64,000 nt of DNA from Escherichia coli O157:H7 (lineage in GTDB: Bacteria; Pseudomonadota; Gammaproteobacteria; Enterobacterales; Enterobacteriaceae): NCBI RefSeq assembly GCF_013167455.1, contig NZ_CP038328.1; one strand, 5' to 3'. The position numbers were made by a program. This document shows positions 24,201 through 27,200 of the stretch, in pieces (the first letter of the stretch is position 1; each line of letters begins with the position of its first letter).

Positions 24201-27200
24201 GTGGATCTGGTTTTCGCGCCCTCGGTAAAAGAGATCTACCCGAACGGTACTGAAACCCATACTTACGTTGACGTTCCAGGGCTTTCGACCATGCTGGAAG
24301 GCGCCAGCCGGCCGGGGCATTTTCGCGGCGTGTCGACTATCGTCAGCAAGCTGTTTAACCTGGTCCAGCCGGACATCGCCTGCTTCGGTGAAAAGGACTT
24401 TCAGCAACTGGCGCTGATCCGCAAAATGGTTGCTGATATGGGCTTTGATATTGAGATTGTCGGTGTGCCAATTATGCGCGCCAAAGACGGTCTGGCACTG
24501 AGTTCCCGTAACGGTTATCTGACGGCAGAACAACGCAAAATTGCGCCCGGTCTGTACAAAGTTTTAAGTTCGATTGCCGACAAATTGCAGGCTGGCGAAC
24601 GGGATCTCGATGAAATTATTGCTATTGCCGGGCAAGAACTGAATGAAAAAGGCTTCCGCGCCGATGATATTCAGATTCGCGATGCCGACACATTGCTGGA
24701 AGTCTCTGAAACCAGCAAACGGGCAGTAATTCTGGTAGCCGCCTGGCTTGGCGATGCTCGCCTGATCGACAACAAAATGGTCGAGCTGGCGTAATACTTA
24801 TACTCTAAATAATTCAAGTTGCAAGTTGCAGGAAGGCGGCAAGCGAGTGACAAATTCGTCAGGAACGAATTTGCCCAGCCGCAGGCTGGCCTTCGGTGAG
24901 AGACATGGATGTCTCTCATTAATCCCCAGGAGCTTACATAAGTAAGTGACTGGGGTTAGCGAACGCAGACGCAGCACATGCAATTTGAAGTATGACGAGT
25001 ATAACTGGCGCTACGGCTGATGGCGCCAATTATTAATTTGCCCCACGTCATGGCGATGGCGTCTGTAAGCAATTATTCATAACGCAGACAACTTAGTTAA
25101 TCAGCCTATCAATCTCAGCAAGAGATAAATTTGTCATCTCTGCAACGTCTTCCCGAGACATCCCTTTACTCAGAAAACGCTGGGCGAATTCTTGCCTCTC
25201 CTCCTGTCTTCCCTGCTGAATCCCCTTCTCAATCCCTTTCTCTTCAAACCACTGTGCCAGCGTCATCATAGACTTCCCTCCCGTTTCCCTGTCTCTCAGC
25301 ACACCATAAAACAAATCCGCTTGTTCAGTATGACCGCGTTGCAGCATATAGTTTTGCATGGCAACTAACTGACTTTCGCTAGTGTACCCTTCGTCAATCA
25401 GCGTGACCAGTTGCTCCAGCAATAACATTAAGTCGCGCTGGCGAATATGTTTTTGCAGTAGTTCGAGAATCGCAATCCGCCGATGTTGCATGATTTCGTC
25501 ATCCGGTGTGATGGTGATATCCACCAGCGGGAAAGGACTGTTATAGACGCGTCGCGCCAGCTCCGGCGAGTAAAACATATCAAACCAGCACATTGAGAGC
25601 GGATAAGGTGTGGCCTCGCCCTGATAAAAGAGAATCGGCACTACCAGCGGTAGTTTGTCGTGATCCGCCTCCAGATGCCGATGCATGGCGGCTATAGAAT
25701 AACGCATCATGCGAAAGGCCATTTTCTTATCCGGCTTGCTTTGGTGTTCAATCACAACATGCAGATAACCGGGATTGCCCTGCATTTGCACGGAATAGAG
25801 CACGTCCGTGCTGTGTCCTTTAAGGCTCTCTTCAATGAAACTCCCCGACTCTAAATGAAGCGTGTTGAGGTCACAAAGTTCGCGTAATTCCACTGGCAAA
25901 TGTATCTCCAGAAAGTCGCGAGCCGTCTCCGCATGCATTAAAAATTGTTTAAATACCGCGTCATGCGGTGTGGTACTCGGTGCATCCATCTTCCCTGTCT
26001 TCCGTGTTGTCTTGCGTGAAGGCAGTATCCAGTCAAGGCGTGCTATCGTCAGCCACCTCTTTATTGTTTACCGAGCAGCGTTCAGAGAAATATCAATTCG
26101 TTACAGGCGATACATGGCACGCTTCGGCGCGGTACGCAAACTGCTGATGCAAATGCCGTCAGATGAGTAGACACTAAACAAAAATCGGGCAATACTGCGT
26201 GAGAATTTCCTCAAAGCAGGCACCGCCTGCTTCGTTAACGACAGGGTAGAAAGGTAGAAGTTATGATTCGCACGATGCTGCAGGGCAAACTCCACCGCGT
26301 GAAAGTGACTCATGCGGACCTGCACTATGAAGGTTCTTGCGCCATTGACCAGGATTTTCTTGACGCAGCCGGTATTCTCGAAAACGAAGCCATTGATATC
26401 TGGAATGTCACCAACGGCAAGCGTTTCTCCACTTATGCCATCGCGGCAGAACGCGGTTCGAGAATTATTTCTGTTAACGGTGCGGCGGCCCACTGCGCCA
26501 GTGTCGGCGATATTGTCATCATCGCCAGCTTCGTTACCATGCCAGATGAAGAAGCTCGCACCTGGCGACCCAACGTCGCCTATTTTGAAGGCGACAATGA
26601 AATGAAACGTACCGCGAAAGCGATTCCGGTACAGGTTGCTTGATTGTTATCCCTGCGGCTGGTTACTCACCAGCCGCGACATCGTCTCCAGCGAATCCGT
26701 TCTTAAGATATAAAGTCGTTTTAGTAACAACGGATTATCCCCCGGTTTTACTTTGCCTTTCATGGTTGTCACCGCCAGGTGAAATCCGGCATCGTTTGCT
26801 GCCTTCACGGCTTTGTCATTAAAGCCGCCAAACGGATACGAAAGATACCAGACATGCGGATTAAATTGCGCCAGAGCGCGACGTGAACGTGCAAAATCAA
26901 ACAGAATATTGTGCTCACTACGGCTCAGTAATATGGGTCGGCGATAACCATCTACCCGATGCAAAAAATGGGTATGTGACTGGAAATCAAATACATCGCG
27001 AATTTCGTTAAGCTCAGAAACGCTCATAAATTGCAGCGATTTTGGTTCCCACTTCTGCGGGTGACGTTTGATGCGCGAGGTAACAATAAACGCCGTCGCC
27101 TTCATGCCATATTGTTTCAACACAGGATACGCATAGCGGCTCACTGACTTGAGGCCATCATCAAAGGTAATCACCACCGCTCGCGCAGGAAGATTGATCT

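Follow-up and report, generated by a model that had tools for sequence, protein, structure and literature searches.

What becomes of the transcripts of two genes that converge with almost nothing between them? In the stretch of Escherichia coli O157:H7 DNA analysed here (64,000 nucleotides, hereafter the window), panD and yadE meet tail to tail, an arrangement that raises the questions of where each transcript ends and whether their overlap could serve a regulatory purpose. panD (26263..26643, + strand), encoding aspartate 1-decarboxylase, was identified from the ORF list, the annotation and a PF02261 match (E 7.5e-47), while yadE (26647..27876, - strand) was identified from the ORF list, the annotation, Pfam and the literature as encoding a periplasm-exported polysaccharide-deacetylase-family protein, with its PF01522 domain at residues 228-366. 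The trinucleotide TTG (26644..26646) makes up the whole gap between the panD TGA (26641-26643) and the yadE TAA (26647-26649, minus strand), and the junction reads ...GTT GCT TGA ttg TTA TCC... The same 3-bp gap is found in the RefSeq annotation of a 100%-identical O157:H7 record and in K-12 MG1655 (yadE 145081-146310, panD 146314-146694), whose 220 bp spanning the junction are identical to the window (K-12 position = 172957 - window position), confirming the convergent geometry described in the first-pass annotation.

This geometry is widely shared. Of 5426 complete E. coli genomes, 5424 contain the 1.7-kb panD-yadE region (at least 80% coverage). The 81-bp junction is matched at 100% identity by 3357 records. 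The two stop codons lie 1-10 bp apart in 48 of the 80 Enterobacteriaceae species loci retrieved, which makes the close spacing more than a peculiarity of E. coli. Related species differ in the length of the spacer (1-10 bp), in its sequence and in their choice of stop codons, and the spacer itself is nothing special. Stop-to-stop gaps for the nine annotated convergent pairs in the window are 90, 34, 42, 70, 37, 201, 40, 3 and 291 bp; with 3 bp against 34-291 bp in the other eight, panD/yadE is the sole pair without room for an intergenic hairpin.

The fate of the panD transcript can be read from published maps. A promoter-like site (TAGACA-17 nt-AATACT; 26168..26196, + strand; consensus scan) ends 7 nt 5' of the published transcription start (K-12 146754, window 26203), and SMRT-Cappable-seq (Yan et al. 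2018) recovered a full-length panD transcript running from 146754 to 146276 on the K-12 reverse strand in both conditions. In K-12 Term-seq data (Adams et al. 2021) the dominant panD 3' end falls at 146275/146276 (window 26682/26681) in LB at OD 0.4, LB at OD 2.0 and M63, and is classed as 'primary panD, antisense yadE'. These data define a monocistronic transcript of about 479 nt (26203..26682, + strand), comprising a 60-nt 5' UTR, the coding sequence and a 38-39-nt 3' UTR, and show that panD has a transcript to itself, initiated at a promoter 60 nt ahead of the gene. The steady-state 3' end (26681..26682, + strand) is situated 38-39 nt beyond the panD stop and 35-36 nt within the yadE reading frame. 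As this end lies inside yadE and not ahead of the overlap, the suggestion that RNA from this junction runs antisense into the opposing gene is borne out for panD. The TERMITe supplementary data make no mention of panD or yadE.

A combination of inverted-repeat searching, folding and codon conservation identified a perfect 9-bp hairpin in the panD-sense RNA (GCGGCUGGU-UACUC-ACCAGCCGC; 26655..26677, + strand), which is spelled on the opposite strand by yadE codons 400-408 (S-R-L-V-S-N-Q-P-Q). The mapped 3' end falls 4-5 nt after its stem, so that a stable stem-loop sits directly 5' of the steady-state end; the minimal hairpin folds about equally well in either sense, at -16.6 kcal/mol (panD) and -18.0 kcal/mol (yadE). 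It has the GC-rich stem of a canonical intrinsic terminator and lacks the U-tract: the tail reads GACAUCGU, with 2 U among the 8 nt past the stem in E. coli (the count is 1-3 throughout the 49 tight-junction sequences), and a consensus terminator scan did not call it. An Rfam scan of 25900-28000 returned two chance-level matches (E 0.14 and 0.62), far under their gathering scores. The first-pass annotation had held that the junction leaves no room for independent terminators. This is correct for the 3-bp spacer, which contains none, but leaves out of account a conserved 3'-end hairpin that belongs to panD and lies inside yadE codons.

A detailed comparison of 49 Enterobacteriaceae sequences with 1-10 bp yadE/panD junctions enabled us to ask what holds this hairpin in place. 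Four stem codons (CGG, CTG, CAG and CCG) never change in the 49 sequences, and TCG is kept in 41/43, whereas not one of 236 conserved degenerate codon columns from the rest of yadE is invariant (Fisher p 1e-7) and mean third-position identity there is 52%. These counts point to an excess of synonymous constraint confined to the stem. Loop codons, flanking codons and the CAG/CAA codon, of which only the first base is paired, vary freely, and the constraint tracks the paired nucleotides exactly. Pairing is kept in 261 of 261 cells in the panD sense and in 97.7% in the yadE sense, every non-Watson-Crick change being G·U in the former and A·C in the latter, an asymmetry that reflects roughly 5-7 independent events in counts that ignore phylogeny. 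One stem pair covaries between AU and GC, which is the full extent of the covariation; of the nine pairs, seven are the same in every sequence. The comparison shows that the hairpin is under purifying selection as a panD-sense RNA structure across the tight-junction Enterobacteriaceae. What is new here is the coincidence of a 3' end 4-5 nt past a perfect, U-less hairpin with frozen stem codons in yadE codons 400-408.

The palindrome could conceivably have no function in RNA, and result as a by-product from the conserved C-terminal peptide of YadE, biased codon use, an overlapping ORF or a protein-binding site in the DNA. The peptide RL(V/I)SNQPQG is itself conserved, and the invariant stem pairs are by themselves uninformative on structure. 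However, amino-acid conservation leaves synonymous third positions free, as they are in the other columns. CGG is a minority codon, chosen for 17% of the arginines in the rest of yadE, and the constraint matches the paired nucleotides exactly. A DNA palindrome would lack the G·U/A·C strand asymmetry, and the hairpin decays in the outgroups, among which several carry a terminator between the genes. We consider a by-product extremely improbable. A + strand ORF at 26640-26822 (60 aa) was considered as the cause of the synonymous freeze and rejected, both on account of an in-frame TGA in species with an ATC AGC AAT loop and of the limitation of the constraint to paired bases.

The outgroups also suggest how the arrangement arose. 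In outgroup genera the yadE/panD spacers measure 44-206 bp, and in 5 of 10 wide-spacer loci panD has a canonical terminator consisting of a hairpin and U6-8, while the hairpin within yadE is degraded. The 3-bp junction is probably a compacted boundary, in which the panD 3'-end signal has left the spacer and come to lie among the codons of the opposing gene, and the 3' end is formed by Rho and trimming. In this model, the hairpin at 26655-26677 would not itself be a terminator. RNA polymerase leaving panD would continue antisense into yadE, making RNA that is presumably untranslated, until Rho frees it a few hundred nucleotides downstream; 3'-to-5' exonucleases would then cut the transcript back to the hairpin, which would shield the panD mRNA. 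Each panD transcription event would carry a polymerase several hundred bp into yadE and leave a stable antisense tail of 35-36 nt.

Published data are consistent with a role for Rho. Adams et al. (2021, supplementary file 2) report a bicyclomycin-sensitive region at K-12 145798 on the minus strand (score 7.18, significance 8e-27), whose centre at window 27159 (+ strand, RNA antisense to yadE) is 477 nt, or about 480, beyond the panD 3' end. Since the region was defined with 800-nt windows, is not assigned to panD read-through specifically and lies some 480 nt away, it could also reflect antisense transcripts starting inside yadE. The + strand carries more C than G at 26650-26850 and 27100-27300, although the skew is modest to weak (GC skew -0.07 to -0.18 at 26650-26850). 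According to Dar and Sorek (2018; PMC6061677), Rho-dependent E. coli transcripts end right after stable stem-loops that lack U-tracts and shield them from PNPase and RNase II, and rut sites follow immediately downstream. The panD end resembles this class in its stem-loop, its precise 3' end and the absence of a uridine tract that marks the class; the Rho-sensitive region and the mildly C-rich RNA downstream may be further points of likeness. It differs in that the stem-loop lies wholly within the coding sequence of a convergent gene, and is therefore double-coded, with the synonymous sites of its stem frozen; the roles of Rho and trimming are here presumed.

A simpler possibility is that the GC-rich 9-bp hairpin alone releases RNA polymerase at 26681/26682, with neither U-tract nor Rho. 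The stem is highly stable, and so precise a 3' end, recovered in three conditions and in full-length reads with a 5'-triphosphate, would fit such non-canonical intrinsic termination. Nevertheless, the scarcity of uridines past the stem in E. coli and in the tight-junction species, the failure of the consensus scan to call a terminator and the Rho-sensitive region further downstream all speak against it, as does the finding of PMC6061677 that U-less ends of this kind are generally processed Rho-dependent ends. We regard intrinsic release as improbable, and retain Rho-dependent termination followed by trimming as the preferred explanation. The second + strand hairpin, at 26694-26736 and followed by CCCCCGGUUUUACUUU, was set aside as a panD end, there being no 3' end reported at that site.

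The panD 3' end is abundant in Term-seq; the yadE side of the junction is markedly different. The Term-seq and SMRT-Cappable-seq data examined report no yadE 3' end inside panD, and the operon tables of the SMRT-Cappable-seq study do not list yadE; the gene is without a detectable trace in these two 3'-end data sets, both obtained under laboratory conditions. A hairpin comprising GUACCGGAAUCGCUUUCGCGGUAC and then GUUUCAUUU (26611..26634, - strand; scan and folding) lies 3' of the yadE stop within panD codons and folds well in E. coli, making it a candidate yadE terminator in this species only. As a conserved yadE terminator it was rejected, because the panD codons that encode it vary freely at synonymous sites without compensation, and no 3' end is reported there on the K-12 + strand. 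The first-pass annotation had both genes' transcripts extending antisense into each other, with mutual interference between pantothenate synthesis and yadE as a possible outcome. The mapped end supports the panD half of this claim, but the yadE half lacks a reported 3' end within panD; given also the absence of yadE from the operon tables and the poor conservation of its downstream hairpin, the mutual part is left with coverage calling as its only source. The overlap is real but asymmetric, with a stable antisense tail of panD in yadE and no reported counterpart from yadE, and any interference would probably be one-sided, from panD onto yadE. A functional tie of YadE to pantothenate synthesis finds no support.

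This asymmetry bears on whether the hairpin could instead act on both strands, as an overlapping bidirectional terminator that pauses both polymerases until collisions release them, independently of Rho. Members of this class (Ju et al. 2019; bioRxiv 10.1101/2022.10.23.513370) likewise place a U-less hairpin at a convergent boundary; in the collision model such hairpins separate convergent gene pairs of E. coli and go with uniform 3' ends, and the palindrome, as noted, folds similarly both ways. However, that class is described as two-sided, independent of Rho and promoted when the two genes are strongly expressed, whereas here one partner goes undetected in the data examined and a Rho-sensitive region lies downstream of the hairpin. 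Transcription of yadE seems too weak to provide polymerases for collisions, and the hairpin is flanked by one reported 3' end rather than two, none being reported in the yadE sense. Furthermore, sequence changes preserve pairing in the panD sense only, and a polymerase transcribing yadE meets the hairpin before it reaches the stop codon, so that termination there would yield a non-stop mRNA. Bidirectional termination by collision therefore seems very improbable.

The remaining alternatives are regulatory. The overlap and the listing of panD/yadE as an excludon were already known: the pair is among 165 convergent excludons of MG1655, called in at least 50% of 58 RNA-seq samples (Sanmartin et al. 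2025, PMC12288877). Like others in that set, panD and yadE are adjacent, opposite-strand genes converging at their 3' ends, with little DNA between them and a 3'-end element in the neighbour's transcription unit. In a regulatory convergent excludon, interference between the overlapping transcripts, RNase III cleavage of their duplex, or both would make panD and yadE expression mutually exclusive. That panD RNA overlaps the yadE 3' end in published maps, and that the two genes keep their tight synteny in so many species, would fit such a role. Yet a 3-bp spacer meets a coverage-based overlap criterion almost automatically, and any stable duplex would span no more than 35-36 bp. Neither a reported yadE 3' end nor a conserved structure exists within panD, and with yadE missing from the full-length transcript tables reciprocity is unproven; classical excludons show demonstrated reciprocal expression, whereas for yadE/panD the overlap has been mapped to the nucleotide in one direction only. 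The statement in PMC12288877 of a shared metabolic pathway is unsupported by anything found here. Reciprocal regulation is, in our view, unlikely.

A one-way version can also be formulated, in which an ancestral intrinsic panD terminator was lost in favour of a Rho-dependent end and the invasion of yadE from panD silences yadE during pantothenate synthesis. We think this quite unlikely. If true, it would make the locus a hard-wired one-way excludon that has persisted over tens of millions of years and that a fimbrial operon has taken over in Salmonella and Enterobacter, with the hairpin double-coded in the last nine yadE codons anchoring Rho-dependent termination of panD. Against the preferred explanation, the hairpin is retained where a fimbrial gene, not panD, converges on yadE, namely in Salmonella and in the E. 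cloacae and C. freundii complexes. Its persistence where panD has been replaced indicates that it may serve whichever transcript converges on yadE, or may have another role.

With the overlap documented and the pair catalogued, the regulatory idea matters little for now, and the locus is an ordinary catalogued case with one tidy extra detail. That detail has some general value: a near-zero convergent spacer need not mean that there is no terminator, as the 3'-end element may sit in the neighbour's codons. Sequence alone can reveal elements double-coded in this way, through synonymous sites frozen exactly at paired nucleotides, with the asymmetry of G·U and A·C changes telling which strand's RNA is selected. 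The locus is, moreover, a clean test bed, where synonymous yadE mutations that break the stem should alter panD mRNA stability and neither protein, and would separate 3'-end protection from antisense regulation. Within the same window, hpt/can provides a more conventional counterpart, in which two convergent genes likewise share one palindromic element. There the spacer is 40 bp and the hairpin (GCCGGATG...CATCCGGC) is flanked by A and T tracts, with Term-seq 3' ends at K-12 142003 (+) and 141973/141974 (-) on either side of it; yadE/panD, by contrast, combines no spacer and no U-tracts with a mapped end on one strand only.

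The panD and yadE genes converge with only three bases, TTG (26644-26646), separating their stop codons. panD occupies 26263-26643 on the + strand and stops at TGA (26641-26643), and yadE occupies 26647-27876 on the - strand and stops at TAA (26647-26649, TTA when read on the + strand). This bears out the spacing of about 3 bp proposed in the first-pass annotation, and the RefSeq annotations of both O157 and K-12 MG1655 (yadE 145081-146310, panD 146314-146694) show the same arrangement. The 1.7 kb of the window that was tested is 100% identical to NZ_AP018488.1, and the O157 window and K-12 do not differ over the 220 bp surrounding the junction, so that K-12 RNA data are directly usable here (K-12 coordinate = 172957 - window coordinate). 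The nine annotated convergent pairs of the window have gaps of 90, 34, 42, 70, 37, 201, 40, 3, and 291 bp, making panD/yadE locally unusual as the sole pair without space for an intergenic hairpin. The region is found in 5424 of 5426 complete E. coli genomes, and an 81-bp junction query is matched with 100% identity in 3357 records; a junction allele of just 90-95% identity occurs in 452 records. In E. coli TB354 (search match H22, NZ_AP038814.1) the same query aligns only from base 19 on, with yadE the sole annotated gene beneath, and this strain may have a disrupted or replaced panD.

Published RNA maps place the end of the panD transcript within yadE. In Term-seq (Adams et al. 2021, eLife), the K-12 minus strand has a dominant 3' end, classed as 'primary: panD; antisense: yadE', whose position is 146275 in LB cultures (OD 0.4 and OD 2.0) and 146276 in M63. 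These positions correspond to window 26682 and 26681, 38-39 nt past the panD stop and 35-36 nt into the yadE ORF. Independently, both SMRT-Cappable-seq conditions (Yan et al. 2018) yielded a full-length primary transcript from 146754 to 146276 that covers b0131 (panD) alone. panD is monocistronic, and the start of this transcript sets its TSS at window 26203, 7 nt downstream of a promoter-like AATACT box. The proposal that each transcript must extend antisense into the other gene therefore holds for panD, whose mapped end lies beyond the junction rather than short of it, while for yadE the Term-seq lists (Adams et al. 2021) contain no 3' end on its strand at K-12 1463xx-1466xx. Likewise, b0130 (yadE) is not in the SMRT-Cappable-seq operon tables (Yan et al. 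2018), although the yadGHI operon is. A terminator-like hairpin at 27884-27896 (- strand; TCACCCTCGGTGA then TTTTTTCATG), directly upstream of the yadE start codon and extending into it, may separate yadE from the transcript of yadGHI, an operon seen without yadE.

The idea of a panD-yadE overlap is already in the literature at catalogue level, as yadE-panD is among the 165 convergent 'excludons' called by Sanmartin et al. 2025 (NAR, PMC12288877) in half or more of 58 RNA-seq samples from MG1655. The interpretation offered in the first-pass annotation is thus partly supported and already published. It is possible that the pair, formally a catalogued excludon, is also a true regulatory one; however, because yadE was undetected in the data examined, only an action of panD on yadE is plausible. 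The same paper states in its synteny/function section that yadE and panD share a metabolic pathway, for which we found no support in the literature searched. This statement looks like an annotation artefact, since YadE is described elsewhere as a periplasm-exported deacetylase-fold (PF01522) protein of unknown function.

The stable 3' end of panD abuts a conserved, U-less hairpin within yadE. At 26655-26677 a 5-nt loop is enclosed by a perfect 9-bp inverted repeat (GCGGCTGGT-TACTC-ACCAGCCGC), and the mapped end falls 4-5 nt downstream of the stem. Folded in the panD sense, the minimal hairpin reaches -16.6 kcal/mol, against -18.0 kcal/mol for the yadE sense; its fold z-score in context is about -2.5. 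It fails as a canonical intrinsic terminator, as the tail after the stem, GACAUCGU, was tested for a U-tract and lacks one; the terminator scan did not call it, and no Rfam family matches at the locus. Intrinsic termination at this U-less hairpin is a rival account of the panD end. The earlier claim that there is no room for independent terminators is correct insofar as the 3-bp spacer cannot hold a hairpin, but it overlooks this conserved element. On the other strand the hairpin forms yadE codons 400-408, (TC)G CGG CTG GTG AGT AAC CAG CCG C(AG), outside the Pfam PF01522 match (residues 228-366).

For a comparison across the Enterobacteriaceae, where YadE identity is 74-88%, 80 species loci were fetched and the yadE and panD stops located in each. 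The spacer is 1-10 bp in 48 loci (49 sequences counting the window), comprising Escherichia, most Citrobacter, many Enterobacter, Leclercia, Lelliottia, Kosakonia, Trabulsiella, Pseudocitrobacter, and others. Eight loci (Kluyvera, K. pneumoniae, Raoultella, and others) have spacers of 27-35 bp containing a U-less GC hairpin of their own, and 10 outgroup loci (Buttiauxella, Cedecea, Siccibacter, Dryocola, and others) have spacers of 44-206 bp. The hairpin within yadE has decayed in these wide-spacer outgroups, where on average 5.6 of its 9 pairs are Watson-Crick, and five of the 10 (L061, L062, L071, L077, and L080) carry a canonical panD terminator of a hairpin followed by U6-8. A gene other than panD converges on yadE in 13 loci (gap 0-6 bp), and one locus with a frameshifted yadE (L059) was excluded and its spacer not scored.

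Within the tight-spacer group, the stem codons CGG, CTG, CAG, and CCG are invariant in 49/49 sequences and TCG is retained in 41/43. None of the 236 other conserved degenerate yadE codon columns is invariant (minimum codon entropy 0.14 bit, mean 1.16), against four of six in the stem (Fisher's test, p = 1e-7). Third positions outside the stem have a mean identity of only 52%, and in the rest of yadE only 17% of Arg codons are CGG. The synonymous constraint coincides precisely with the paired bases: variation is seen in the loop codons, the last Gln codon, of which only the first base is paired, alternates between CAG and CAA, and the neighbouring Leu, Glu, Thr, and Gly codons are all variable. 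This pattern rules out the reading that the hairpin has no function as RNA. One pair covaries, with Val (GTN) accompanied by AAC and Ile (ATN) mostly by AAT (12 GC, 29 AT, 8 A/C, 0 G/T). RNA of the panD sense is paired in 261/261 cells and that of the yadE sense in 97.7%, the six distinct departing sequences forming G·U in the former and A·C in the latter. This asymmetry points to selection acting on the RNA antisense to yadE, as judged from a single covarying pair and some 5-7 independent events with kinship ignored. Synonymous sites in the final 20 codons of panD vary in the ordinary way, and the hairpin that follows the yadE stop in E. coli (26611-26634, - strand), considered as a conserved yadE element, is not maintained across species. 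yadE thus contains a conserved panD 3'-end element, with no counterpart for yadE within panD.

Dar & Sorek 2018 (PMC6061677) describe Rho-dependent E. coli transcripts that end precisely just after stable U-less stem-loops, which shield them from PNPase and RNase II, with rut sites just beyond. The panD/yadE arrangement probably works like such a protective 3' stem-loop. Bicyclomycin data (Adams et al. 2021, eLife) identify a Rho termination region antisense to yadE at K-12 145798 (Rho score 7.18, significance 8e-27). Its centre, window 27159, lies deeper in yadE on the same strand as the panD 3' end. In the model we propose, RNAP leaving panD would run through the hairpin into untranslated RNA antisense to yadE, Rho would free it within ~0.5 kb, and the panD RNA would afterwards be trimmed back to the hairpin. 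We regard this as a somewhat probable origin of the panD 3' end. The + strand after the hairpin is modestly C-rich (GC skew -0.07 to -0.18), which lends the Rho model slight backing. Rho dependence is a much less secure claim than the role of the hairpin in setting and protecting the panD 3' end. With the hairpin located ahead of the yadE stop and a 3' end seen on one strand only, collision-type bidirectional termination at this site is unlikely; nor does the site qualify as an overlapping bidirectional terminator, which by definition is two-sided. The hpt/can pair of the same window provides the textbook contrast and a useful positive control, with a 40-bp spacer, Term-seq ends on both strands, and one bidirectional intrinsic terminator at 30954-30984 (K-12 141973-142003), whose hairpin (GCCGGATG...CATCCGGC) sits between A and T tracts. 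Judging from the literature searched, the conserved, double-coded panD/yadE hairpin is an undescribed detail of a known kind.

The neighbouring convergent rpnC (yadD)-panC pair (window 24795-25092 and ~25333; K-12 147624, minus strand) is also on the excludon list of Sanmartin et al. 2025. A strong Rho termination region antisense to rpnC (score 16.9; Adams et al. 2021) indicates that panC read-through is Rho-terminated inside rpnC, and SMRT-Cappable-seq (Yan et al. 2018) shows panBC and panC transcripts ending at K-12 147906.

In Salmonella enterica and the E. cloacae and C. freundii complexes, a fimbrial adhesin-like gene replaces panD facing yadE; in E. cloacae (L032) the two genes abut (0 bp), and in Salmonella (L083) they are 1 bp apart. 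As the hairpin is retained in these lineages, it may serve any transcript converging on yadE; alternatively, the fimbrial insertions are too recent for it to have decayed. The cluster, adhesin-like gene first, lies at 4249-7142 in L032 and 3730-4865 in L083, and fimbrial identity was checked in L032 and L083/L084 only. Further loci with a non-panD gene facing yadE are L006, L009, L010, L015, L031, L034, L035, L041, L047, and L068 (gaps 0-6 bp by eye). Since yadE adjoins panD in the wide-gap outgroups, gene order suggests that the fimbrial cluster was inserted at the yadE-panD junction. In Citrobacter amalonaticus AUH_CA_2023_1 (L059, 4126-4224), yadE is seemingly frameshifted or truncated ~30 codons early, with the usual tail and hairpin sequence persisting downstream, a pattern due either to pseudogene formation or to an assembly error; yadE is a reported pseudogene in Salmonella ST313 sublineage 2.2.

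Large, mostly conjugative E. coli plasmids also carry a cassette that combines an intact panD with a remnant of rpnC and ~185-245 nt from the 3' end of yadE, at 61 plasmid places in the E. coli genome set (for example plasmid p140_MLI109, L087 4001-4629, and search matches H21 and H27-H36). PLSDB holds 46 matching records, including several full-length matches on very large records. The p140_MLI109 copy, the one examined, adjoins IS/transposase genes, and its hairpin is identical to the chromosomal one, though the yadE fragment is a pseudogene.
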